Source: Anaerolineales bacterium (GTDB lineage: Bacteria > Chloroflexota > Anaerolineae > 4572-78 > J111). From it: a DNA stretch of 40,000 nucleotides. The notes under the pieces are model-generated. The model was not told the DNA's origin. It searched no databases and saw nothing but the letters and a program-made list of their open reading frames with translations. The translations under genes were made by a program, and so were the position numbers. Shown piece after piece: positions 4,865 to 40,000 of this stretch (position 1 is the stretch's first letter; every line of letters starts with the position of its first letter). The DNA is taken from contig JABTUK010000005.1 in assembly GCA_015075405.1 (NCBI GenBank), positions 773,747-813,746 on the forward strand, written 5' to 3'.

Positions 4865-7240
4865 TCACGGACCCAGTGCCCCCGCCTCAACCATGGCCAG
4901 ATAAACTTTTTCGGCGGTAAAGGGGGGTGAACCCACTCGTATGCCAATAGCATCATAGATAGCGTTGGCGATAGCCGGGATGGTGGGCACCATGGGATGC
5001 TCGCCAACCCCGCGCGCCCCAAAGGGACCGTCATCCTGCGGCACTTCGACCAAGATGGAGTCAATTTGGGGCGGCGCGTCGGCGCTGGTGGCAATGCGAT
5101 AATCCACAAAGCTGGGGTTTTGCAGCACCCCGCCCTTGAATTGCAGACTTTCAAACAGGGCTGTGCTCATCCCCTGGACAAATCCGCCTTCGACCTGGGC
5201 TTTGGCTAACTCCGGGTTGATGGCTTTTCCCAAATCAAACGCCGCAGCCGCCCGCAGAATTTCGATTTTGCCGGTCTCCAGGTCTACTTCCAATTCGACC
5301 GCCTGAGCGCCGGTGGTGTAGTGCACGACGGCCCGCTCACCCTGGCCGGTTTCAAAATCCAGGCCGGTCACATAAGTGGGCATAAAATTGCCTCGACCCA
5401 CAATCGGCCCGCCGATCCAGCCGCTGGCGTTGGGCTTGGGCAGACCATAAATCACAATATCTTTGAGCGAGATAGTTTCTTCACTTTTAAAGGAAACAAC
5501 CTCACCGTTGATAATGTCCAAATCTTCAGGCTGCTCATTCCAGGCCTGGGCTACCACGTTGAGAATTTGCTCGCGGGCATCGCGGGCGGCATTGACCACC
5601 GCATTGCCCATGCTCCAGGTCAAACGGCTGGCGACGGTTTGCCATTCATAAGGGCTGTATTGGGTGTCCACCGGCCCGGCAATCCGAATCCACTCGTAGG
5701 GCACGCCGAGGGTGGCCGCGGCCATTTGGGCCATGACCGTAAAGGTCCCCTGCCCAATCTCCTGTCCCCCGACAGCCAGCGTCACCGTGCCATCCTCGTT
5801 CAATTCGATGACGGCGCTGGAGCCGGGGTTGGGCGGCATAGCCGGCGCTTTCCACATAAGGGCAATGCCCTTGCCGCGCCGCTTGGTGGGCGAACTGGCC
5901 GGCGCTTTGTGCTCCCAGCGAATCGCTTCGGCCACTTTATCAATGCACTCCGGCAGGCCGGTGGGGTGCATCTTGCTGCCGGTGACGACAATACTGCCCG
6001 TTTTGAGGCAGTTGAGCCGGCGGAACTGCACCGGGTCCAGCTTGATTTCGCGGGCCAGTTCGTCAATGCACTGCTCCAACCCGGCGTGAAGTTCCGGCAT
6101 ACCAAAGCCGCGCATGGCCCCTCCGACCGGATGATTGGTGTAGACGCACATACTGTCGGTTTTGACGTTTGGAATTTCATAAGGGCCGCTGCTGCTATAG
6201 CCGCCGGCGCGGGTGATATTGACCCCATACTCGGTCGAAGCGCCGCCATCCCAGTACATGGTGTTTTCCATGGCCAATAGTTTACCCTGGGCATCACAGC
6301 CAATCTTAATTTTTGAAACCAACCCCTGCCGGACAAAAGCGGTATAAAATTCCTCTTCGCGGGTCAGTAAAAGCTTGACCGGCCTGCCTTTGGTTTTCAT
6401 AGCAATGGCTACAGCCAGGGCCTCCATGCTGACCCCGGCCTTACAGCCAAAGCCGCCGCCCACATACGGGGCGATGACGCGCATATCACTCTGGGAGATA
6501 CCCAACGATTTGGCAATGAGATTGCGCTGGGCAAACGGCGATTGGGAACTACTCCACAGGGTAATTTTGCCCTGCTCATCCATTTTGGCTACCGCCACGT
6601 GCGGTTCGAGGGGAACATGCTGCACGTGCGGAATGTGGTACTTGTGTTCAACGATGGCGGCGCATTGCGACCAGGCGCTGTCGGGGTCGCCCTTGCGAAT
6701 TTTGAAGTGGTTGGAGATGTTGGTGCCGGGCCTGGGGAAGATGAAAGGCACGACTTCGTAATTACCCAAGTCGGGATGGATGAGCGGCGCTTCAGGGCTG
6801 GCCCCAAATTCGGGGTCGAGCACCGGCTCCAGCAGTTCATACTCTATCTTGATCAATTCGACGGCCTTTTCGGCCACCGCTTCGCTGATGGCGGCCACCC
6901 CGGCTACCGCCTCGCCGACGTAGCGGACACGGTCGCGGGCAAAAATGTAGCGGTCTTTCAGATACAGGCCAATAAAACCGGGGAAATCCTCGCCGGTGAC
7001 AACGGCTTTGACCCCCGGCAAGGCTTTGGCCCGGCTGATGTCAATAGATTTAATCAGGGCGTGGGGGTGGGGACTGCGTTTGATGCGAGCGTACAGCAGC
7101 CCCGGCCCAAACTGCAAATCATCGGTGAACTGGGCCGCGCCGGTCACTTTTTCATGGCTGTCGAGGCGCGGTACGCTGGCCCCAATGAGGTCGGGTGTTT
7201 TTTCGGTCATGGTTTCTTTAACAAGCATAGCTGTCTCCAT
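4865..7240 (-). CDS. Xanthine dehydrogenase/aldehyde oxidase-family molybdopterin-binding large subunit
   Basis: 791-aa ORF. N-terminal IGASVPRLDSHEKVTGAAQFTDD. Later GGGFGCK, GQGTFT and GVGEHPMVP motifs typical of CoxL/XdhB-type Moco subunits. The second ATG at 7228 has a better GGAGA spacing and may be the true start. Confidence 0.9.
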   Translation of the reverse strand: METAMLVKETMTEKTPDLIGASVPRLDSHEKVTGAAQFTDDLQFGPGLLYARIKRSPHPHALIKSIDISRAKALPGVKAVVTGEDFPGFIGLYLKDRYIFARDRVRYVGEAVAGVAAISEAVAEKAVELIKIEYELLEPVLDPEFGASPEAPLIHPDLGNYEVVPFIFPRPGTNISNHFKIRKGDPDSAWSQCAAIVEHKYHIPHVQHVPLEPHVAVAKMDEQGKITLWSSSQSPFAQRNLIAKSLGISQSDMRVIAPYVGGGFGCKAGVSMEALAVAIAMKTKGRPVKLLLTREEEFYTAFVRQGLVSKIKIGCDAQGKLLAMENTMYWDGGASTEYGVNITRAGGYSSSGPYEIPNVKTDSMCVYTNHPVGGAMRGFGMPELHAGLEQCIDELAREIKLDPVQFRRLNCLKTGSIVVTGSKMHPTGLPECIDKVAEAIRWEHKAPASSPTKRRGKGIALMWKAPAMPPNPGSSAVIELNEDGTVTLAVGGQEIGQGTFTVMAQMAAATLGVPYEWIRIAGPVDTQYSPYEWQTVASRLTWSMGNAVVNAARDAREQILNVVAQAWNEQPEDLDIINGEVVSFKSEETISLKDIVIYGLPKPNASGWIGGPIVGRGNFMPTYVTGLDFETGQGERAVVHYTTGAQAVELEVDLETGKIEILRAAAAFDLGKAINPELAKAQVEGGFVQGMSTALFESLQFKGGVLQNPSFVDYRIATSADAPPQIDSILVEVPQDDGPFGARGVGEHPMVPTIPAIANAIYDAIGIRVGSPPFTAEKVYLAMVEAGALGP

Positions 7241-7246
7241 AAGAAA

Positions 7247-7432
7247 CGTGTTGCGTCTTGCGTCTTTTGTGAATAACAGGACTTACGCGGTTAGTATTGA
7301 AAATGGCGTAATTCAGAGCAGAATCTACAAAATTAAGGAATTTTTATTCTTTCATTCCGAAAATTCTGCTCTTTATCTTGGTCAACTGTGTAAGTCCAAT
7401 AAGTAACGGAAGACGCAACACGCAAGACGCAA
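7247..7432. repeat. Nested inverted repeat in the intra-operon spacer: heptamer-word arms (TTGCGTC x2 / GACGCAA x3) enclosing an AT-rich inner hairpin
   Basis: cgtgttgcgtcttgcgtctt (7247-7266) is complementary to aagacgcaacacgcaagacgcaa (7410-7432). Inner pair is agagcagaat / attctgctct. Confidence 0.6.
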
Positions 7433-7440
7433 TACATGTT

Positions 7441-7923
7441 CTAAACTGCCCCAACTTTCTGCTGTTCTGCCGCCGCTTTGACCGCCTCGATGATGCGGAG
7501 ATAGCCGGTGCAGCGGCACAGATTGCCGACCAGCGCATCTCGAATCTCATAGTCGCTGGGTTGAGGGTTGCGGTTGAGTAGGGCCTGGGCTGAAATTAAT
7601 ACACCCGGCGTGCAAAAACCACACTGCACCCCGCCCTGAGCGATAATCGCTTCCTGGATGGGGCTGAGGTGGCTGTTTTGGGCCAGCCCTTCTACAGTGG
7701 TAATTTCGGTCCCGTCACACTCGACCGCCAGCACAATGCAGCTATTAACTGGCTCGCCGTTCAGCATCACGGTGCAAGCCCCACATTCCCCGGCGGTGCA
7801 ACCGTTTTTTGTCCCGGTCAAGACCAATTTCTCGCGCAGCATTTGCAGCAAGGTCATATTCGAGGGGACATCTACAATTTCAGTCTCGTTGTTGATGGTT
7901 ACGGTAATTCGGTGAAATGCCAT
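7441..7923 (-). CDS. (2Fe-2S)-binding small subunit of the XDH-family enzyme
   Basis: 160-aa ORF with both [2Fe-2S] cysteine clusters (GCTAGECGACTV and CGFCTPG...CRCTGY). Confidence 0.9.
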   Translation of the reverse strand: MAFHRITVTINNETEIVDVPSNMTLLQMLREKLVLTGTKNGCTAGECGACTVMLNGEPVNSCIVLAVECDGTEITTVEGLAQNSHLSPIQEAIIAQGGVQCGFCTPGVLISAQALLNRNPQPSDYEIRDALVGNLCRCTGYLRIIEAVKAAAEQQKVGAV

Positions 7924-7941
7924 AGTATTCTCCGGTAAGAA

Positions 7942-8018
7942 GGTAGACAGTAGTCGGTAGACGGTAGACGGGGAGAAGAAAATTAACCCCTGTCTGCTGT
8001 TTACTGTTTACCGTCTAC
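7942..8018. repeat. Heptamer-word inverted repeat (GGTAGAC-type arm / CTGTTTA-CCGTCTA arm)
   Basis: ggtagacagtagtcggtagacggtagacgggg ... cccctgtctgctgtttactgtttaccgtctac. The right arm overlaps the 3' end of the FAD-subunit ORF. Confidence 0.55.
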
Positions 8019-8904
8019 TTATTTTCTCCCATACTTCGGTGATTGCCCTTTTGGTCAAATTTCTGACCATGAACTTGCGGTAGCGGGCGCTGCCGCGGAC
8101 GTCGTCAATGGGGGCGCAGGCGTTCATCGCGGCCTCGGCGGCCTCAGCGATAACGGCCTCGGTGATGGGATTCTCGGCCAAAATCGTTTGAACCTGAGCA
8201 GGGACAAACGGCGTCGGCGCAACCGAAGCCAGGGCCAGCCGGAAAGAATAACCCGATGGCGTGCTGCTATCCGGGTAGCCCAGGGCGGTCACGCCAACAA
8301 TGGCCAGGTCGCCAATGGCATTGCGGCCCAGTTTAATGTAGCGGGCGGCGTAATTTTGCGGTGGCAGCGGGAAGACAATCGCCGTAACAATATCGCCCGG
8401 TTTCAAAACGGTTCTGCCGGGACCCACAAAAAAGGCGCTCAATGGCTCGCGGCGGACGCCATCTACCCCGTGAACCTGGAGTGAGGCATTCAAAACCAGG
8501 CACGGGCCAATGGTATCGCCGGCCGGCGAGGCATTGCAGATATTACCGGCCAGGGTAGCCCGCGTCCGCAATTGATAACTGGCAACGGTATGAGCCGCTT
8601 CGGCCAAAACCGGGTAATATTCTCTCACCTCAGGCGAGGCGACGACTCGATTCATATTGACCGAGGCGCCGATGGTCAGCCCGGCGGTTGGGTCGAAGCT
8701 GAGTTGGCTCATGCCATCCAGGTTTTTTACATCTACAAGATATTTCTCTTTCCAAAAGCCGTCACGCATGCGCACAAACGTGTCTGTTCCCCCCATAAAA
8801 GGGCGGGCCTCGCCCGCGTGTTGGGCCAGAAACTGGCTGGCTTCGGCCAATGAGGCCGGTTTCAGGTAATCGAACTCAGGAAGTCCGGGGGTTGGATTGG
8901 GCAT
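8008..8904 (-). CDS. FAD-binding medium subunit (CoxM/XdhA-like) of the XDH-family enzyme
   Basis: 298-aa ORF. FAD_binding_5-like N-terminus (FDYLKPASLAEA...MGGTDTFVRMR) and a CO-dehydrogenase flavoprotein C-terminal-like tail (DDVRGSARYRKFM). Confidence 0.85.
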   Translation of the reverse strand: MPNPTPGLPEFDYLKPASLAEASQFLAQHAGEARPFMGGTDTFVRMRDGFWKEKYLVDVKNLDGMSQLSFDPTAGLTIGASVNMNRVVASPEVREYYPVLAEAAHTVASYQLRTRATLAGNICNASPAGDTIGPCLVLNASLQVHGVDGVRREPLSAFFVGPGRTVLKPGDIVTAIVFPLPPQNYAARYIKLGRNAIGDLAIVGVTALGYPDSSTPSGYSFRLALASVAPTPFVPAQVQTILAENPITEAVIAEAAEAAMNACAPIDDVRGSARYRKFMVRNLTKRAITEVWEKISRR

Positions 8905-28255: not shown

Positions 28256-28328
28256 TGAGCCGTGTGGGACTCGAACCCACGACCCATTGCTTAAAAGGCA
28301 ATTGCTCTTCCGACTGAGCTAACGGCTC
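28256..28328 (-). tRNA. tRNA-Lys (anticodon UUU)
   Basis: The reverse complement GAGCCGTTAGCTCAGTCGGAAGAGCAATTGCCTTTTAAGCAATGGGTCGTGGGTTCGAGTCCCACACGGCTCA folds as a cloverleaf: 7-bp acceptor stem, GCTC/GAGC D stem, ATTGC/GCAAT anticodon stem with loop CTTTTAA, and a GTGGG-TTCGAGT-CCCAC T arm. CCA is not encoded. Confidence 0.9.
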
Positions 28329-28410
28329 GGGATTGGGGCCACCGCTAAAATGCGGTGGCTTTTTATTTGCGTCAAGAAGGATAACAGAAAATCTTTCACC
28401 TGTCAAGAAC

Positions 28411-29358
28411 TTATTTATTCTTATTTAAATTACTTAAGGGGCTTGTTTCTTGATGTCGCTTACACCGGCCCTGATTGACTACTTTGGTGTATTTTGCGGT
28501 CGTCGTGATTGATGCGTGCCCCATCTGGTCGCGAATATCCAGAAGATCGGCCAGGTTTCTCAGGGAATAAATAGCATAGGCATGGCGAATCGCATAAGTC
28601 GTGAACTGATCAATGCCGGTTTTTTCTTGCCAGAAATGCAACCGCTGTCGGATGCCGGATGAAGTGAAGGGACGAAAACCCTTATGTTGATAATCGCTGA
28701 TCCAAAGATGGCGTAATTCATCGGATACACCCAGTTCCTGGCGCTTCTTCTTCCAAATAGTCAGGATGCGGGCGACATCATCAGTAAACACAAGCTCTCG
28801 ATCTTCGTAATCCTTGTTGCTGTGAACCCGAATCGTGCGATTTATTAGATCAACATCATCTACTTGCATCGCTGCTAGTTCACCAGGCCGAGCAGCCGTG
28901 TCCAAAGCGACAAAAAACAAAGCCAGATCACGTATGTCATGCCAACTATCTCCTCTTTGTTCAATTGTGAATAGCATGGAGGACATATCTTCTTCTGGCG
29001 GCGCTTTCGGCAGCGGTTTAGGAGCTGGAATTGTGTCCAAAAATTCAAGCGGGCTTTGGCTGATGTAGCCGAATTTTTTTAGCCAATTGAGCCAGGATCG
29101 CAGCGCGCGATAGTAATTATTGCACGAGTAATCTTTCAATCCTTTGACCTTGAAAGTTTCCAGGAAGGTGAGGCAGTGAGTTACGGTAGGCGGCCAGGTA
29201 GGTGGTTGTTGTTGAATGGCATCCCGATAATAACCAAGTACATTCCTGTACCAGGTAACCGTGGCCGGCTTCTTTGTTACCTGCTTGAATTTGAGAAATA
29301 GATCAATGTAATAATTGAGGTCCTGCTCGACAACAACAAAAACAAAATTCGGCGTCAT
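28411..29358 (-). CDS. Tyrosine recombinase / phage-type integrase
   Basis: 315 aa. SAM-like N-terminal domain. Catalytic-domain residues: TAARPGEL (Arg), IRHAYAI (His-x-x-Arg region), GHASITTTAKY (His, Tyr nucleophile). Confidence 0.9.
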   Translation of the reverse strand: MTPNFVFVVVEQDLNYYIDLFLKFKQVTKKPATVTWYRNVLGYYRDAIQQQPPTWPPTVTHCLTFLETFKVKGLKDYSCNNYYRALRSWLNWLKKFGYISQSPLEFLDTIPAPKPLPKAPPEEDMSSMLFTIEQRGDSWHDIRDLALFFVALDTAARPGELAAMQVDDVDLINRTIRVHSNKDYEDRELVFTDDVARILTIWKKKRQELGVSDELRHLWISDYQHKGFRPFTSSGIRQRLHFWQEKTGIDQFTTYAIRHAYAIYSLRNLADLLDIRDQMGHASITTTAKYTKVVNQGRCKRHQETSPLSNLNKNK

Positions 29359-32852: not shown

Positions 32853-33272
32853 ATGCTGCTGCACCGGATCAACCCCGAAAGAAATGAGGCCAGGTTTTAC
32901 CTGGTTATCGTTGCACCCACCCTCCTTGATCCCATCGCCGTGTGGCGGGTGTGGGGCCGAATTGGCGGGGCGCAGCGCAGCAAAATTGACCCGTGCGGAT
33001 CAGCGGCCGAGGCCGAGAAGTTGGCCGAAGCCATGATCCGGCGTAAAATTAAACGCGGCTACAGAGTCGCAGGAGAACCCGATGAGCAGGAAAAAGAAAA
33101 AGCCAACCCGCAAGGCTCGCCGCCAGAACCGACAGCAGCCGACGATTCAACATCCCGACCGGCAGGAGGGGACCTGTCCGGAGTGCGAAAGCGCCGTGAC
33201 CGTGCGCGAAATCAAAAATTTTCCCAGCCCGGTCCGGCGGGCGACGGTCCATTACAAATTGAGCTTCTGTAA
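32853..33272 (+). CDS. WGR-domain protein
   Basis: RINPERNEARFYLVIVAPTLLDPIAVWRVWGRIGG...KIKRGYRV fits the WGR domain. The low-complexity tail overlaps the next ORF. Confidence 0.65.
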   Translation: MLLHRINPERNEARFYLVIVAPTLLDPIAVWRVWGRIGGAQRSKIDPCGSAAEAEKLAEAMIRRKIKRGYRVAGEPDEQEKEKANPQGSPPEPTAADDSTSRPAGGDLSGVRKRRDRARNQKFSQPGPAGDGPLQIELL

Positions 33273-33726
33273 TTTCTGCGCCTGGAACAACGTCGAGCTA
33301 CAGGCGTTGGTCCCGATGAACCTGAAGCCGCTGAGCGACCAGGAGCTGGAGCAGATTCATAACGCGGTTATGGACCGGCTGCAACAGGAGGTAAGGGCCT
33401 ATGCCGAATTTCAAAAGAAGCTGTCTACTCTGCCTTTTGGGATGGCTACCTCGGCTATCGGCGCAGCGCTGGGCTTCGATGAGGCCGAGCTGTCCGTGGC
33501 CCGACAGATCGCCGAGAGAGGCATTTCGCTTGAAGTCGCTTACGGCGAGCTGTGCCAGGCGCTGGCGGCCGAGGTCCGCGCCGAGGCTGTCTTTAAGGCG
33601 CTGGCAGAGGAGCCGGCGGGACACGTGGCCCTCGTAGCTTCGGTAGAATACTGGAAAGACAAGGGGCTGCCGCCACCCTGGCTAGAACTGGTTGAACCTT
33701 ATTTACGCCAAGCGGAGGACCCATGA
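33082..33726 (+). CDS. Hypothetical protein with basic N-terminus and CxxC...CxxC zinc-ribbon
   Basis: AGGAGA lies 6 nt upstream of the ATG. CPECES...FCNFC. The stop overlaps the next start (ATGA). Confidence 0.5.
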   Translation: MSRKKKKPTRKARRQNRQQPTIQHPDRQEGTCPECESAVTVREIKNFPSPVRRATVHYKLSFCNFCAWNNVELQALVPMNLKPLSDQELEQIHNAVMDRLQQEVRAYAEFQKKLSTLPFGMATSAIGAALGFDEAELSVARQIAERGISLEVAYGELCQALAAEVRAEAVFKALAEEPAGHVALVASVEYWKDKGLPPPWLELVEPYLRQAEDP

Positions 33727-35447
33727 TGTCAATCGGCCAAACCGCCGACGGCAAGCCGTTCACGCTGCCGTCTGATGCCGTGACCCAAAAATTCGCCTTT
33801 CTGGCTCAATCCGGCGCAGGAAAATCGTATGCCGCGATGAAACTGGCTGAGGCATTTCTGACTATCGGGGCGCAAATCATTGCGCTTGACCCTGTGGGGG
33901 TGTGGTGGGGGCTACGCGTCGCGGCTGATGGCAAGAAAGCCGGTTTTCCCATCGCTGTCTTTGGTGGGGATTACGGCGATCTGCCTCTCCCGGCTACCAG
34001 CGGCGCCCTGGTAGCCGATCTCCTGGTCGAACATCGCATTGGCGCGGTGCTGGATGTGTCCGCGTTCGAGCTGCCCGATCAGCGGCGTTTTGTGGCCGCG
34101 TTTGCCGAACGATTCTTTCAGGCCAAAAAACGCGCCCGCAGCCCGGTCCATCTTTTCCTGGAGGAAGCGCAAACTTTTGCCCCCCTGCGCCCCGAAAGAG
34201 ACGAGACGGTGATGCTGAACCGGGTGGAGCGCCTGGCCCGGCTGGGTCGCAACTACGGCGTGGGCTGGTCGGTCATCTCGCAGCGACCGCAAGAAGTTCA
34301 CACGAAGGTGCGCAACCAGGCCGGAACGCTGATTGCAATGCGGACCATCGGCCCGCACGAACGCAAGGCCGTGGCCGAATGGATGAACGATAACGCCACC
34401 ACGCCAGCAGACCTGGACCTGGTTAATGATTTGCCAACGCTGGAAACCGGCGAAGCTCACATCTATAGCCCGTCATTCCTCAAAATTTCCACGCGGATAC
34501 GAATTGGCCGGCGGCAAACCTTTGATTCTTCAGCCACTCCCGAAGATGGCATCACCACTGCCCAACCCCGCCCCCTGGCCCCGGCCGATTTAGAGGCGCT
34601 GCGCCAGGCCATGCAGCAGGTGGTTCAGGAGGCCGAGGCCCGCGATCCGGTGGTGCTGCAACGCAAGATTGTTCAGCTTGAAAAAGAGCTGAGGGCGAAA
34701 GCAAAGGTAGAGCGGGTTGTCGAGCGGGTGGAGGTGCCGGTACTGCAAGATGAGCAAATCACCCAGTTGCAGCAGGCAATCAGCAGTTTAGCTGACATGG
34801 GGCAGCAGTTGGTCAGTGTAGCGCAAGACTTGGGGACGGCGCTGGCCAGGGTAGTGTCTAGCTCCGCTCCGCCGCCTGTTTCGGCTCCGTCTGTTTCGCC
34901 CCCAGAGGCCCGGCCTACATCTCGACATGTCAAACCATCTCCCGCACCCAGGAGAGCCGACTCAGACATACCACAACTTCGTGCTGGGGAACGGCGCATG
35001 TTGGAAACACTGGCTCGACGTTATCCTCTGCGCGTGACCCGCGCCCAATTGGGTACTCTGGCCGGATTTACTCCGTCAGGCGGGACTTTCGGAACCTATT
35101 TTGGCACCCTCAAACGGGCCGGATTGATTGAGGAAAGTAGTGGGGAGATCCAGGTCACTCAGGCAGGGCTGGATTACTTGGGTTACACCACGCCGCCAGC
35201 GCCGCAAACAACCGAGGAGATTCTGGCCATGTGGCGGGAAGCCTTGCGAGCGGGAGAGCGTAAAATGCTGGATGAATTAGTTGCTGTTTATCCTGACTCG
35301 CTTTCCCGTGAGGAGTTGGGAACACGAGCCGGGTTTACGGTGAGCGGAGGTACGTTTGGGACGTACCTGGGAACGCTGCGCCGGAATGGGCTGGTGGAGG
35401 TGGACGGCGACCAGGTGCGGGCCAGCGAAACCCTGTTCTTAAGTTGA
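33723..35447 (+). CDS. HerA/FtsK-like P-loop ATPase with two C-terminal winged-helix repeats (candidate dsDNA translocase/transfer protein)
   Basis: Walker A FLAQSGAGKSYAA. Walker B VHLFLEEAQ. Tandem ~75-aa repeats (ERRMLETLARRYP...GFTPSGGTFGTYFGTLKRAGLIE and ERKMLDELVAVYP...GFTVSGGTFGTYLGTLRRNGLVE). Confidence 0.75.
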   Translation: MMSIGQTADGKPFTLPSDAVTQKFAFLAQSGAGKSYAAMKLAEAFLTIGAQIIALDPVGVWWGLRVAADGKKAGFPIAVFGGDYGDLPLPATSGALVADLLVEHRIGAVLDVSAFELPDQRRFVAAFAERFFQAKKRARSPVHLFLEEAQTFAPLRPERDETVMLNRVERLARLGRNYGVGWSVISQRPQEVHTKVRNQAGTLIAMRTIGPHERKAVAEWMNDNATTPADLDLVNDLPTLETGEAHIYSPSFLKISTRIRIGRRQTFDSSATPEDGITTAQPRPLAPADLEALRQAMQQVVQEAEARDPVVLQRKIVQLEKELRAKAKVERVVERVEVPVLQDEQITQLQQAISSLADMGQQLVSVAQDLGTALARVVSSSAPPPVSAPSVSPPEARPTSRHVKPSPAPRRADSDIPQLRAGERRMLETLARRYPLRVTRAQLGTLAGFTPSGGTFGTYFGTLKRAGLIEESSGEIQVTQAGLDYLGYTTPPAPQTTEEILAMWREALRAGERKMLDELVAVYPDSLSREELGTRAGFTVSGGTFGTYLGTLRRNGLVEVDGDQVRASETLFLS

Positions 35448-35450
35448 AAA

Positions 35451-35474
35451 GCCTCCTTCCACGTGGAAGGAGGC
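35451..35474. terminator. Perfect 24-nt palindrome; likely terminator after the ATPase gene
   Basis: gcctccttccacgtggaaggaggc followed by tttgtattt. A related hairpin (gccccttccgcgtggaaggggc) is at about 39933-39954. Confidence 0.6.
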
Positions 35475-35546
35475 TTTGTATTTAGTCGGCGAAGGAGTAA
35501 TACTAACGCCTCACGGATCACCTGCTGCCGCCGAGACTCCACGATT

Positions 35547-36164
35547 TTATTTAGGTAATATCAGTGTCTCATTTTCCTCAAGTTCTTCGGTGTCTACTTT
35601 ACCTCCATAAGAATAAATTACTACCAACTTCTTTCGCTCACCAGGAGGTGTATCACCGAGAACTCTCTTGTGCGCCTGCATTTCAAGTCTTCCTGCTGAT
35701 ATGTTTGCCCTCACCTTATGAGTAACATTATTCATTTTGTCTTTTGCACCCCATACCGCATGATGAATGGTTAAAGTTAAAAAGGGAGACTGAGCATCTT
35801 GTAGACCAGTTATTAGTTTATCCCAAAGTTGGGGGTCTTTATAATCTACATATTGAAGAGTTTTCAATCGAGGGTGCAGTTCATCAGGCTTAATGTCTAT
35901 TAACGGAATCACCCTCACTCCTGCCCCGTATGCAAAAGCCCACTCGTAAGTTACATACTCTGACGCTTTGGCTTCCGGTGTCATTATAACAATGAGTGCA
36001 ATAGATTTTCTAATTTCCTCATCAATTTTCTTTCGCCAGTCTATTCCAACATGTATATTACGATCTATCCAAACATCAAAACCTGCTTCTTTAAGTTTGA
36101 TCTCCAAAGGTTGAACAAAGTCAATCTGATCACGTTGGTAGGAAATAAAGATTTGGGGCAACAT
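35547..36164 (-). CDS. TIR-domain protein with a C-terminal beta-rich domain
   Basis: IFISYQRDQIDFVQPLEIKLKEAGFDVWIDRNI...IALIVIMTPEAKASEYVTYEWAFA (TIR_2-like, with the conserved Glu). C-terminal LTIHHAVWGAKDKMNNVTHKV...LGDTPPGERKKLVVIYSYGG. Confidence 0.85.
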   Translation of the reverse strand: MLPQIFISYQRDQIDFVQPLEIKLKEAGFDVWIDRNIHVGIDWRKKIDEEIRKSIALIVIMTPEAKASEYVTYEWAFAYGAGVRVIPLIDIKPDELHPRLKTLQYVDYKDPQLWDKLITGLQDAQSPFLTLTIHHAVWGAKDKMNNVTHKVRANISAGRLEMQAHKRVLGDTPPGERKKLVVIYSYGGKVDTEELEENETLILPK

Positions 36165-36216: not shown

Positions 36217-36627
36217 TTACAATGATAAATAAATACTGATGAAAGTAACTAAGATAATGGAAACCAGTATAACGCCATGAAAAGCAACGAGTGTTTTTGA
36301 AAGAGTTACGGAAGCCCAGGGAGCAACTTCGTCTTTGACTTTGGAGACATTCATTGAGAAGTCTATCTCTTCCTCGGATAATCCGCGAACGTAGTCATAA
36401 AGTTTTCTGAATAACCTCTCCTGGTGTAAAAAGTATCCATCAAGACCCCAGAAAACTATTGCTGGAAAATAAGCAAGATATACAAACAATAATTGCTTAC
36501 CCCCAGCTGCCAATGCAAACATTGCGGAAATTAGCACAACACTCCAGCCCTTTAATAAGAACGAGTTGGAAGAGAGCCGATTGACTACTCCCTGAATCAT
36601 TTCCAGGTGTGCAAGTTTGTTCGACAT
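36217..36627 (-). CDS. Small three-TM membrane protein, upstream partner of the TIR gene
   Basis: Start set at the ATG at 36627, which has AAGGAGG 6 nt upstream. TM segments GWSVVLISAMFALAAG, LLFVYLAYFPAIVFWGL and LVAFHGVILVSIILVTFISIYL. 52-nt gap to the TIR start. Confidence 0.65.
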   Translation of the reverse strand: MSNKLAHLEMIQGVVNRLSSNSFLLKGWSVVLISAMFALAAGGKQLLFVYLAYFPAIVFWGLDGYFLHQERLFRKLYDYVRGLSEEEIDFSMNVSKVKDEVAPWASVTLSKTLVAFHGVILVSIILVTFISIYLSL

Positions 36628-36648
36628 ATTTGCCTCCTTTTTAGTCTC

Positions 36649-36703
36649 TAACATCGCCGTTCAGTTGCACGGACCGCGCATGTCAACTGCATCAGCGATG
36701 TTA
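36649..36703 (-). promoter_or_regulatory. 55-nt hairpin immediately upstream of the 3-TM gene RBS
   Basis: taacatcgc...gcgatgtta outer stem with an inner cagttgca / tgtcaactg stem. No U-tract. Confidence 0.45.
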
Positions 36704-36759: not shown

Positions 36760-37095
36760 TTATCGAGTAGTCCTTTGAATTAATATAGCCAACTGTGGGA
36801 AGTATTTCTTTGAGTTCCGTATCATCAGTTGGGAATATGATAAATCTGCCTCAATCAAATAAGCCTGGTACATTTGGGCTTCGTTGAAATTACATTTGTG
36901 GAGGCTGGCCTTGACCAATTTAGCTTTTCTCAGATTAGCTGCTCTAAAATCGTAGCAGTTGTTAATTACTGGGTGAGTCTCTGACGGTTTACCATGAACC
37001 TTCAGAAAAGTGATTTCCTGTCGGTATTTGCCAATTCGCCATCTTGTAAACCATTCGCTTTTTCGCAGTTCGGCTCTTTGACCTCGATTACTCAT
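36760..37095 (-). CDS. Short pentapeptide-repeat-like protein
   Basis: 111-aa ORF. FRAANLRKAKLVKASLHKCNFNEAQMYQAYLIEADLSYSQL has the A(D/N)LxX periodicity. A TATAAT lies about 25 nt upstream. Confidence 0.4.
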   Translation of the reverse strand: MSNRGQRAELRKSEWFTRWRIGKYRQEITFLKVHGKPSETHPVINNCYDFRAANLRKAKLVKASLHKCNFNEAQMYQAYLIEADLSYSQLMIRNSKKYFPQLAILIQRTTR

Positions 37096-37183
37096 ACTCT
37101 ACTCGACAAATATCTCATTATAATCAGTTACACCAAGATTCTGAGCACCGACTAGTTTTTCCATAGCTGTAAGTACCGCTATT

Positions 37184-37300
37184 AAACAAAAAGCGCCGCC
37201 CTTTGACCAGGCGGCGCAAATATGCTACCATGCACAATTAAACCGGGCTGGTGGCACACACACCTGATCCGGGTGAAGCCCCGTTGCAGCGGGGCTTTTT
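37184..37300 (+). repeat. Structured ~115-bp unit, copy A (hairpin 1, conserved linker, terminator-like hairpin plus T5); candidate small RNA or cassette boundary
   Basis: aaacaaaaagcgccgcc-ctttgacca-ggcggcgcaaatatgctac...aaaccgggctggtggcacacacacctgatccggg..agccccgttgcagcggggcttttt. Near-identical copy at 39763-39877. Confidence 0.6.
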
Positions 37301-37583
37301 CATAGTATAACATAAGCGGGCTGGATTGACAACAAAAACAAAAACGGGTAAACCTTTTAGATTACCCGCGAAGTTGGCGCTGGCCTTTTTTAATAGCCGC
37401 TACCTTCTACATCTATTCGTTTGATTACAGCCTAGCTTTTAATGAAACTTGATGTCTACATAGCATATACAGTATTATAGGAGTTCAAACACTACTAGAT
37501 TTGGTATAGCCCGCTATAGCTACAAAAGTTCTTACCCATTTGGATGAATCCGATTAATGGTGTAGAATCATTTGCTAAATAGA

Positions 37584-37615
37584 GAAACCACCGTTGTTCG
37601 AGCAACGGTGGTTTC
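37584..37615. other. Perfect 13-bp-stem hairpin in the non-coding region
   Basis: gaaaccaccgttg-ttcgag-caacggtggtttc. Confidence 0.6.
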
Positions 37616-37743
37616 AATAGTAAGCCGGGTCTCGGTCCAGAGATAACCACGGCCTTGCTTGTTGCAAGTCGTGATTATACCCTAACGTTTCCATTTGTCA
37701 ACTATTGCCAATGGATACAGTTAATATTGCCTATCTGAGGCTT

Positions 37744-37828: not shown

Positions 37829-38377
37829 ATGTTGAAACTGTATGCTAACGAGTTCTCTGAAATCCCCATAGTGCTTTCTAAAAGAGCAGACTTACGTGGG
37901 GCAATGATTAAATTAGTTGAAACGGAATCAGTAGCTGGCAAAGTTACGGAGGGGGGAAACCGACTTGATCTATTTAGATCAGTATTAAAGCCACTAATTA
38001 TTGGTGAATTGACTCTCACTAATGCATACCAGAGGACAATGCTTCACCTTACCAGAGAGAACTCAATCCATGCTGGTAACAATAAGGTTTTTGCAACTGG
38101 GTGGGCTGAAAGGCTTGTACGTACCCAGTATAGCCGATTTTACAACCAAGCTGTAATGGAAGAGTTACTTGCAAAGGGACAGACAGAATGTTTTGTTCCA
38201 CATTCATCTGAAGAGAACGTAGGCTCGAAGTGCTCACTCTATTTGGCTGGGAAAGCACATAATCTCAAGGCTCTTTATAATCTTTTAATTTCCTCTTATG
38301 CAAAAGGTTCTTGGGACAGCTCTCCCAAGATACCCGATCATCCCCATTGTACCCATGTGGTAACTCCAGTTTTATAA
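37829..38377 (+). CDS. Hypothetical 182-aa protein, family not recognised (possible Cys/His metal site near the C-terminus)
   Basis: Strong RBS AAGGAGG 4 nt upstream. AT-rich codon usage. ECFVPHS...SKCS...DHPHCTHV. The TIR-like gene follows 19 nt later. Confidence 0.65.
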   Translation: MLKLYANEFSEIPIVLSKRADLRGAMIKLVETESVAGKVTEGGNRLDLFRSVLKPLIIGELTLTNAYQRTMLHLTRENSIHAGNNKVFATGWAERLVRTQYSRFYNQAVMEELLAKGQTECFVPHSSEENVGSKCSLYLAGKAHNLKALYNLLISSYAKGSWDSSPKIPDHPHCTHVVTPVL

Positions 38378-38396
38378 CAAGGAAGTTTGTTACATT

Positions 38397-38921
38397 ATGA
38401 CGTACTTGAAAGAAGATCAACTTCGGAATATAGCCAAATTTAGAGGTAATTCTAGATTCTTAGAGTCTACCAAATCAGTGGCCAAGGTAAGTATATTTCT
38501 TTCCCACAGTCACAGGGATAGAGAGATTGTCGAGGGATTTATTACTTTATTGGCAAATTCCAGTCAGATTACAATTTATGTAGACTGGCAAGATGGAGAC
38601 ATGCCTAGAATAACAAATAGAGATACAGCTCAACGAATTAAGTTAAAGATAGGGGAACTTAATCTCTTTATGATTCTTGCCACAAAAAATGCCATGAATT
38701 CTAAATGGGTTCCCTGGGAGATTGGTGTTGCTGACAGCAAAAAGCCTCTAAATAGAATTCTTGTTGTCCCTGTTGCAGACCCTAGTGGACACTTTTATGG
38801 AAACGAATATATGCAATTGTATCAACGGATTGAAGTGTCTAGTAGCGGTGATTTGGGAGTATTCGAACCCAACGCGATTAGTGGATATACAGTTAAAGAA
38901 TGGTTAAAGAGCCATCTCTAA
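38397..38921 (+). CDS. Short TIR-like domain protein (ThsB-sized)
   Basis: VSIFLSHSHRDREIV...ITIYVDWQDG...LATKNAMNSKWVPWEIGVAD. Paralogous to the convergent ORF at 38931-39524. Confidence 0.75.
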   Translation: MTYLKEDQLRNIAKFRGNSRFLESTKSVAKVSIFLSHSHRDREIVEGFITLLANSSQITIYVDWQDGDMPRITNRDTAQRIKLKIGELNLFMILATKNAMNSKWVPWEIGVADSKKPLNRILVVPVADPSGHFYGNEYMQLYQRIEVSSSGDLGVFEPNAISGYTVKEWLKSHL

Positions 38922-38930
38922 ATGACTTTA

Positions 38931-39524
38931 TTAGACCATGTGTTCTGTAGGATTTTCACCTTTAAGCCAAGCAGAAAAATTTACGTATTTGTTTTCAGTC
39001 TCATTAACCCAAAGTTGGTCATTGTTTGCCCTACTGAGTGCTTTTGTGACATAGGGATAAAGCCCCAGATACTCTTGGCCTTTGTAATATTCAGAAATCG
39101 TCACTTGATCCGAAATTGGCACAATGGCAACCCGACCATGTATACCATCTCCATAACCGAGTTCCCAAGGCATCCATTTAGACTCCGGAGAATTAATGGA
39201 AATCGCATACAAGAGACATCGGCATTTTTTGATCATATAGCGTAACCATTCGGCTGTTTCTCTAGAAACCTGTGAACGATTGTAGGCAGGCTCTTCTATC
39301 CAGTCAATAAAGACTGAGCACTTGAAATTTTCGAGTTCAGTCTTAAGCCCTAAAACGTACTCTGAATCGAGGTACCTGTGAGATAGGAAAATATCAAAGT
39401 TATCACCGCTTTTAGCTTTGAATAACACATCTTCCAACAATAAAATATCGGATTCAGATTTAACCGAGTATGAATATCTAAATTTAGCTACCCTCTCTAA
39501 CTCGGGTTTACTAAATAAGGCCAT
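38931..39524 (-). CDS. Short TIR-like domain protein, paralogue of 38397-38921
   Basis: FDIFLSHRYLDSEYV...SVFIDWIEE...SINSPESKWMPWELGYGDG. Shares the AKFR, FLSH, (V/I)DW, SKWxPWExG, YxGxEYxxLY and WLK motifs with its neighbour. Confidence 0.75.
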   Translation of the reverse strand: MALFSKPELERVAKFRYSYSVKSESDILLLEDVLFKAKSGDNFDIFLSHRYLDSEYVLGLKTELENFKCSVFIDWIEEPAYNRSQVSRETAEWLRYMIKKCRCLLYAISINSPESKWMPWELGYGDGIHGRVAIVPISDQVTISEYYKGQEYLGLYPYVTKALSRANNDQLWVNETENKYVNFSAWLKGENPTEHMV

Positions 39525-39762
39525 TGAATCTCACCTTTTTAAGAAAATTCTCAAGTATAAGTAGGCCAGTTATTCCGCACAATAGTTGCTCTCTAAATGT
39601 CTCTTTAGTAATGAAAACTACAAAACACCCTTCTGACCATGCTTTAGCCTCTTATTAAATATGATAATCACTGACCCATGTATCCATAACACTGACGGCA
39701 TCCATAAGATTTGCCCCACGAAGGCATCAAAATTGATGGTGCCACGGTCCTAAGATAACTTG

Positions 39763-39877
39763 AAACAAAAGCGCCGCCTGGTCAAAGGGCGGCGCAAATA
39801 TGCTACTAGGTACAAAATAAACCGGGCTGGTGGCACACACCTGATCCGGGCCAAGCCCCGTTGGCGTGGGGCTTTTT
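39763..39877 (+). repeat. Structured ~115-bp unit, copy B
   Basis: aaacaaaagcgccgcc-tggtcaaag-ggcggcgcaaatatgctac...aaaccgggctggtggcacacacctgatccggg..agccccgttggcgtggggcttttt. The loop of hairpin 1 is the reverse complement of the loop in copy A. Confidence 0.6.
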
Positions 39878-40000
39878 GATTGCCATTATGATAACATAAT
39901 TTAGTTGAATTGACAATCAGAATTACAAATAAGCCCCTTCCGCGTGGAAGGGGCTTATTGATGGGTACTCCTACAAAACTCAAACTGTTCGAGTTTTGTA

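Follow-up and report, generated by a model that had tools for sequence, protein, structure and literature searches.

The Thoeris family of defence systems has recently been extended to eleven validated types (Yirmiya et al., Sorek lab, December 2025 preprint, 10.64898/2025.12.03.692087). According to the same preprint, one TIR cluster is found wired to a SIR2-SLOG protein (type I), a caspase (type IV) or ThsF, a DUF2270 protein with three transmembrane (TM) segments (type V), and the type V ThsF is activated by 3' cyclic ADP-ribose (3'cADPR). Here we describe a locus in a 40,000-nt contig stretch (hereafter the window) of a metagenome-assembled genome of Anaerolineales (Chloroflexota). Three open reading frames (ORFs) stand side by side in it: X182 (37829-38377, + strand), encoding a 182-amino-acid (aa) protein of a compact, uncharacterised family associated with defence islands, followed by TIR174 (38397-38921, + strand, 174 aa) and TIR197 (38931-39524, - strand, 197 aa), both encoding TIR proteins of the ThsB class. 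The locus provides a Chloroflexota example of Thoeris with three TIR classes and visible scars of rearrangement. On balance, and with some reserve, we favour a multi-TIR Thoeris-type system that has as its effector a small membrane protein of the M50A family, encoded by M50A145 (36217-36654, - strand), and in which X182 is not the signal-activated effector.

The three ORFs are judged to be real genes and not chance ORFs, because at least 263 homologues of X182 and 73 homologues of TIR174 (E ≤ 1e-10) were found. Identical copies of the cassette are present in three independent assemblies, and the JGI contig L001 reaches 8 kb past the end of the window. The gap between X182 and TIR174 is 19 nt (38378-38396) and that between TIR174 and TIR197 only 9 nt (38922-38930), while a strong ribosome-binding site, AGGAGG, lies 6 nt 5' of the X182 ATG. 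The motifs AKFR, FLSH, (V/I)DW, SKWxPWExG, YxGxEYxxLY and WLK occur in both TIR proteins, and ECFVPHS, SKCS and DHPHCTHV all occur in X182. In these respects the original prediction, made from the letters of the window, described the locus correctly. The paralogy of the two TIR proteins that it had noticed is also borne out, as they share 28% identity over 162 aa (E 1e-17), corresponding to distant paralogues.

Profile searches placed both proteins in the ThsB class nearly over their full length, TIR174 matching the PADLOC ThsB model PDLC00419 (E 1.5e-53) and TIR197 the model PDLC00422 (E 4.4e-54). In Pfam, TIR174 scored above the cut-offs for TIR_2 (33.9 bits, cut-off 28) and ThsB_TIR (29.3 bits, cut-off 21.2), and TIR197 reached 27.6 bits for TIR_2, 0.4 below the cut-off of 28. 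An S-x-W-x-P-W-E segment is invariant in a family alignment of 36 sequences (W104, P106, W107 and E108 in TIR174), its glutamate being E108 in TIR174 and E121 in TIR197, and both intact ORFs keep every family-invariant residue, this Glu included. The same Glu is catalytic in the NAD+-processing TIR domains known as TIR NADases. The family profile matched the PDB entry 8BTN with an E value of 1.3e-34, and the segment around the conserved Glu aligns with SLWMPWELG of 8BTN and SDWCWDE of Cat1. Structural modelling of TIR174 in AlphaFold2 (predicted local distance difference test, pLDDT, of 90) gave 8BTN, the crystal structure of BcThsB, as the best fold match (E 2e-7, TM 0.66-0.69), followed by other ThsB proteins and the TIR domains of SPARTA and SARM1. 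TIR174 and TIR197 are genuine Thoeris-type TIR proteins of the ThsB class that combine the TIR fold with the conserved Glu, and the assignment of both ORFs as ThsB-type TIRs in a Thoeris-type defence locus stands; neither the fold, as modelled for TIR174, nor the Glu is lacking. TIR174 is predicted to be a phage sensor and signal synthase.

The genes that accompany TIR174-type proteins elsewhere were surveyed in 85 loci, with the island proteins and two ThsA proteins as queries; since many contigs are short, each positive count is a minimum. Two kinds of partner recurred. A three-TM homologue of M50A145 of about 140 aa was found in 35 of the 85 loci, where the usual gene order is membrane protein, ThsB of the PF08937 class and TIR174-type protein, with the membrane protein first in the operon. 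ThsA of the SIR2_2 plus STALD (SIR2-SLOG) architecture was found in 28 in the canonical type I arrangement, and the TIR174 homologues beside these ThsA genes show 42-56% identity. A second ThsB class is present in 60 loci, and a TIR197-type gene adjoins M50A in three (L090, L091 and L093). X182 was found in none of the 85. This partner pattern supports one ThsB lineage that is interchangeably wired to SIR2-SLOG or membrane effectors, the same pattern as the either/or wiring of TIR clusters described in the preprint. In Leptospira dzoumogneensis (L044, 1537-6546), a SIR2-SLOG ThsA stands in one operon with an M50A-like membrane protein and four TIR genes, which puts two different effector types in one Thoeris locus.

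The kinship of the present locus with type I Thoeris lies in these 28 ThsA-associated homologues of TIR174 and in BcThsB (8BTN) as the best solved structure. Unlike type I loci, no ThsA-like gene was detected by tblastn with the two ThsA proteins, either within the 40-kb window or over the further 8 kb covered by L001, and the called genes of L001 gave no SIR2 or STALD match in Pfam.

The membrane protein is the partner that is at hand. M50A145 encodes a 145-aa three-TM protein, with hydrophobic segments at residues ~31-58, 55-73 and 115-145, and lies 1.2 kb upstream of X182 in the same 4.5-kb low-GC island (~35.45-39.95 kb). It matches the PADLOC family PDC-M50A over its full length (E 1.2e-50, residues 10-139 of 145) and PHROG 19896 (E 2e-40); none of the seven island proteins scanned matched the PDC-M50B model at E ≤ 1. 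M50A145 shares 45-49% identity with the head gene of a ThsB operon in locus L041 (E 1e-42 to 1e-44) and 33% with the gene in the Leptospira operon described above (E 1e-17), and its close relatives stand in tight operons of M50A and ThsB in L214 and L215. The family is very large, and none of the 120 M50A145 homologues listed carries a Pfam assignment. For PF10028 (DUF2270), the family of ThsF, M50A145 itself gave no hit, and 2 of 14 relatives gave matches with E values of 0.005 and 0.025, below the 25-bit cut-off, that are collinear over TM1-TM2. From the recurrence and topology that were examined, M50A145 is predicted to be the membrane effector of the island. The probable effector is already catalogued as a PADLOC candidate, and it parallels the recently validated type V.

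Compared with type V Thoeris, the locus shares the combination of TIR synthases with a small three-TM protein, as well as TIR clusters common with type I. By motif and sequence, TIR197 matches entries of cluster 2612357774 in the accessible part of Table S1 of the preprint (10.64898/2025.12.03.692087), where TIRs of this cluster, which has type V entries, are paired with effectors of types I, IV, V and IX. The locus differs in that M50A145 has no PF10028 hit and its family measures ~140 aa against the 184 positions of that model, and in that three TIR genes of three classes are present instead of one, in a split operon. The likeness to PDC-M50 extends over the full length of M50A145, and PDC-M50 is catalogued as a candidate only.

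The third TIR protein of the island, by its domain matches, is TIR205 (35547-36164, - strand, 205 aa), which has a TIR_2 domain (Pfam E 3e-23; PADLOC TIR-containing models at ~E 1e-10) and a C-terminal extension of ~90 aa. It is the last gene of a minus-strand unit in the order pentapeptide-repeat ORF, M50A145 and TIR205, with 52 nt between M50A145 and TIR205. A match of TIR205 to the NCBIfam model ThcB4 of type III Thoeris (E 1.3e-7, 30.8 bits) is far under the 220-bit cut-off. In the rows of Table S1 available for comparison, TIR205 resembles 'type III Thoeris TIR 4', and TIR174 resembles 'type III Thoeris TIR 1' together with some type V rows. The locus is thereby like type III Thoeris (P. 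aeruginosa L0872, with several TIRs and a SLOG effector) in being multi-TIR and, as far as the accessible rows go, in its TIR 1-like, TIR 4/ThcB4-like and TIR 2/3-class components, the last being a gene remnant at 39560-39640. It is unlike type III in that the island yielded no SLOG effector and the ThcB4 score lies far below the cut-off.

If the membrane-effector reading is correct, phage infection would activate one or more of the three TIR proteins, which would convert NAD+ to a diffusible ADP-ribose-derived signal. By analogy, our first guess for this signal is 3'cADPR, as types I and V of Thoeris draw on the same TIR clusters. Activated by the signal, the three-TM M50A145 would then oligomerise and damage the membrane, as proposed for ThsF, and the membrane damage would stop phage replication. 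With a diffusible signal, TIR genes and effector could work together from separate operons. X182 would act upstream as a sensor or regulator, or independently of the other genes.

The X182 family does not behave as a dedicated partner of Thoeris. Its homologues, at 50-62% identity, occur in Chloroflexota, Acidobacteriota, Enterobacterales, Vibrio, Myxococcota, haloarchaea and Asgard archaea, and an exhaustive profile search of 1.84 billion cluster representatives yielded 133 clusters at 50% identity, nearly all of ~180 aa. There are 24 invariant positions, including K38, R45, N85, W92, R95, Q100, S102, R103, Y105, N106, C121, E129 and C135, and the C-terminal HPHCTH is near-invariant; the Cys/His cluster probably binds metal. 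X182 has no match in Pfam (E ≤ 1), NCBIfam or PHROG and, as the original prediction had stated, no SIR2, Macro or SLOG domain (Pfam, PADLOC and NCBIfam). A PADLOC AbiEi match of X182 with an E value of 0.01 was not significant and was treated as noise. The family is absent from all 50,697 phage genome records searched, which rules out X182 as a phage gene, and its only plasmid matches are five haloarchaeal megaplasmids with uninformative annotation. X182 is a standalone cellular gene of bacteria and archaea.

No conserved neighbour of X182 emerged when 399 ORFs from 36 loci were clustered, and the small ORFs upstream of its homologues are not conserved. The neighbours include a complete CBASS (L014; cyclase E 1e-144, 2TM effector E 2e-73), PDC-S06 (L019, E 1e-296), a KwaA-like protein (L030) and Ppl/GajA/LmuB-like ATPases (L012 and L018), and the 137 nearest neighbours also comprise Shango SngA, DndC, TRIP13, AriA and type II methyltransferases. 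Housekeeping contexts were likewise found, with an aminotransferase in L007 and RNR/AhpC in L213. In at least three proteins (P0199, P0320 and the gene at 216-1427 of L011), an AbiEii (DUF1814) nucleotidyltransferase toxin domain is followed at the C-terminal side by a fused X182 domain, the divergent fusion P0320 ending in VPLHPNCKH. X182 belongs to a family of accessory genes of defence islands, whose members adjoin many defence systems of unrelated kinds and are not specific to Thoeris.

Among ~42 other X182 loci, only L212 contains TIR genes. Its order (5001-8864) is X182 (59% identical), a 67-aa ORF, a type IV-class TIR, Peptidase_C14, a 174-aa ORF, a TIR and an orthologue of TIR197 (54% identical). 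The 67-aa ORF also follows X182 in L210, these being the only two loci that have it, and the 174-aa ORF is possibly SLOG-like, as judged from its GITGHQR...GADQ motifs alone. With its three TIR genes and a caspase-like effector of its own, the L212 cluster is Thoeris of a type IV-like kind and demonstrates that X182 can precede Thoeris clusters, which is not proof of an effector role. Because X182 is present in 0 of 85 TIR174-type loci and TIR genes in 1 of ~42 other X182 loci, and because M50A is present in the island, X182 is probably not the effector of the TIR genes as far as these gene contexts tell, and M50A145 fits that role better. The recurrent partners of this TIR subfamily, whose co-occurrence with X182 had been proposed as a check, are instead SIR2-SLOG ThsA or the PDC-M50A three-TM protein. 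Most likely, X182 either serves as an accessory module for sensing or regulation or is a defence factor that works independently as a single gene.

The fold of X182 was predicted with high confidence in AlphaFold2 (pLDDT 95, predicted template-modelling score, pTM, 0.91) as helical with a small sheet, and neither the model nor the profile matched any PDB entry by fold or sequence. In BFVD, a database of predicted viral structures, the top 50 Foldseek matches consist almost entirely of head-morphogenesis or minor capsid proteins of the MuF-like kind (TMq up to 0.63, probability ~1, E 1e-3 to 1e-1). Motifs seen by eye (ARLxxRTE, xxLxGK and PxHxxC) prompted tests at the sequence level. SPP1 gp7 and Mu F scored no better than 2000 shuffles against a diversified profile of the X182 family, and hhalign of the family against a 37-sequence MuF alignment gave a probability of 0.3% (E 0.18), with no significant result against single MuF sequences. 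The hhalign register placed the RLVRTQ helix and the C-terminal P-H-x-x-C in the MuF register, as by eye. Since the sequence-profile tests are negative and the family is found neither in phage genomes nor beside portal or terminase genes, the resemblance of the predicted fold is a fold-level lead that falls short of proving family membership. The residual novelty of the locus is the X182 family, which is compact, conserved and unannotated and has a confidently predicted fold otherwise seen only in phage head proteins.

How X182 came to stand before TIR genes may be read from the architecture of the island. GC content drops from 58-61% to ~40% between ~35.43 and ~39.83 kb of the window, and the right edge, from ~40% back to 56-58%, falls at position 12000 of L001 (window ~39830). 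Two direct repeats of ~185 nt, 83% identical, bracket X182, TIR174 and TIR197. The left copy (37160-37345) contains several hairpins, including terminator-like stems, and the right copy (39738-39925) coincides with the right edge of the low-GC island. Exactly two occurrences of their 22-mer core were counted in the window, where 0 are expected, both repeats fold as strings of hairpins (RNA z-scores of -4.9 left and -2.6 right), and the first 25-nt hairpin is exactly reverse-complemented between the two copies. The repeat has no Rfam family above threshold and no copy in viral contigs, and only two copies were found in the 20-kb contig. Directly upstream of TIR197 lies what is left of a PF08937-class ThsB N-terminus (39560-39640, - strand), decayed and with two in-frame stops, reading MVRRVFCSFHY*RDI*RATIVRN, which is 61% identical over 23 aa to ThsB148 of L041 (tblastn E 3.7e-4), where the intact gene reads RRVFFSFHYQRDVWRVNQIRN. 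This remnant suggests an eroded operon of ThsB and TIR197. Together, the direct repeats, the inverted hairpin and the ThsB pseudogene indicate, at the level of sequence, that older Thoeris-type operons recombined to give the gene order seen today. Given the repeats, the pseudogene, the split operons and the sharp GC boundaries, X182 probably owes its place as first gene of the TIR174 transcription unit to a rearrangement.

Several observations weigh against a membrane-effector system in which X182 has no such role. X182 and TIR174 lie on one strand, 19 nt apart and with no terminator between them, and for these reasons they are almost certainly co-transcribed. The flanking repeats bracket X182, TIR174 and TIR197 as one unit, from which the M50A145 unit is separate, and the latter is divergent to the transcription of TIR174 and TIR197; M50A145 may serve TIR205 alone. 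In L212, a 59%-identical X182 stands again upstream of a Thoeris-type cluster with a 54%-identical orthologue of TIR197, and as the two have diverged to a similar degree, the genes may have travelled together. The link from M50A to ThsF (DUF2270) consists only of the sub-threshold matches (E 0.005-0.025, 2 of 14 relatives). PDC-M50 is a candidate system that is not experimentally validated, and a literature search for PDC-M50 found nothing.

Of the other explanations, the one that survives best, though we regard it as unlikely, is that X182 is an upstream module coupled to the defence genes that follow it without being their effector, either as a MuF-like sensor that binds the phage portal or as a regulator. 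The regulator could be transcriptional or post-translational, with a logic as in CapW/BrxR or CapH-CapP. These regulators precede many different defence systems. A gene on the same strand follows X182 within 150 nt in ~13 loci, several of them being defence genes, such as CBASS in L014, the ATPases in L012 and L018, the KwaA-like gene in L030 and TIR174 here. In ~11 loci, however, the next gene is convergent, and in others (L007 and L213) it is a housekeeping gene; there is no conserved partner of X182, and no DNA-binding domain was detected in X182 by Pfam. The AbiEii-X182 fusions resemble fused toxin-antitoxin sensors, following the logic of CapRel-type proteins and AbiE, whereas the X182 of the window is standalone, and an AbiEii gene adjoins neither it nor X182 in the other loci, the L011 fusion excepted. 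For the sensor version, the MuF-like fold is suggestive given that SPP1 gp7 binds the portal (PMC5576092), but the MuF relation fails both sequence-profile tests.

It is rather improbable that TIR174 and TIR197 are orphan or decaying ThsB proteins, or themselves NAD+-depleting effectors, with M50A145 serving TIR205 only and the cassette being the remnant of a Thoeris operon. The ThsB pseudogene directly upstream of TIR197, the split and convergent transcription units with flanking repeats that indicate recombination, and the lack of ThsA within the window or L001 would all be consistent with this, and the preprint cautions that NADase effectors may be among the unverified TIR configurations (10.64898/2025.12.03.692087). 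On the other hand, both ORFs are intact and keep the family-invariant residues including the Glu, their copies are identical in three independent assemblies, and separate operons are no bar to coupling if a diffusible signal acts in trans.

A more doubtful proposal still, built on the predicted fold, is that X182 proteins are host-encoded mimics of the MuF head protein that bind the phage portal or procapsid, acting alone as decoys that poison head assembly or DNA packaging or serving as phage-sensing modules. In the latter case, the sensing module could precede Thoeris TIRs (here and in L212) or CBASS (L014), or, when fused to an AbiEii toxin, be its infection-sensing switch. The X182 model resembles MuF/SPP1 gp7 (PF04233) in that the fold predicted for it is matched by dozens of viral proteins of the MuF-like type. 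Portal or terminase genes adjoin about 85% of muf genes (PMC5576092), whereas X182 is never beside such genes and its neighbours are cellular or defence genes. If X182 does prove to be a sensor or a decoy, it would represent a new reusable module of prokaryotic immunity.

That X182, TIR174 and TIR197 form a self-contained three-gene Thoeris-like system with X182 as a new effector of the TIR-made signal, as the original prediction had it, now appears the least credible, for although X182 shares an operon with TIR174 across a 19-nt gap behind a strong ribosome-binding site, does occupy the first slot held by M50A in operons of M50A, ThsB and a TIR174-type gene (the part of the claimed effector position that stands), is bracketed with exactly TIR174 and TIR197 by the direct repeats, precedes Thoeris-type TIR genes in L212 too and belongs to a family whose many invariant basic and polar residues might form the lining of a ligand pocket, it is missing from all 85 TIR174-type loci, meets TIR genes in only one of ~42 other loci, where a caspase-like effector and possibly a SLOG gene are already at hand, stands elsewhere beside CBASS, PDC-S06, DndC, SngA or housekeeping genes, has no recognisable toxic or signal-binding domain, and shares its island with a cognate-type partner, M50A. 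Its family is conserved and often found in defence contexts, only these are not specifically those of Thoeris.

The remaining features of the island and its surroundings are minor. The pentapeptide-repeat ORF at the head of the minus-strand unit (36760-37095, - strand, 111 aa; Pfam Pentapeptide E 3.7e-9) has only ~40 residues of repeat and no PADLOC match, and is perhaps a fragment. The two defence units are separated by a spacer in which a perfect match to the sigma-70 consensus, TTGACA-16-TATAAT, occurs at 37701-37674 (- strand), and a strong terminator hairpin (37615-37584) lies ~60 nt past this promoter. A stretch of ~96 nt within 37575-37701 (- strand) folds with a z-score of -6.2 and has no Rfam match at threshold; it may be a small RNA. 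Both edges of the island (35448-35477 and ~39930-39957) carry similar GC-rich hairpins sharing CCTTCC(A/G)CGTGGAAGG, which could be terminators or recombination scars.

Further to the left, a tRNA-Lys(UUU) gene (28256-28328) adjoins a phage-integrase gene, the pair spanning 28256-29358 (- strand), and this is the probable attachment end of an integrative element that carries the island. The element starts at the tRNA-Lys and the integrase and continues into phage-like replication genes. Immediately left of the island, high-GC sequence (32853-35447, + strand) encodes a 139-aa protein with a WGR domain, an ORF product of 214 aa and a HerA-like ATPase of 574 aa (PADLOC HerA E 6e-25) whose C-terminal part carries winged-helix repeats. 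Together, these genes may be another defence-type module of the integrative element.

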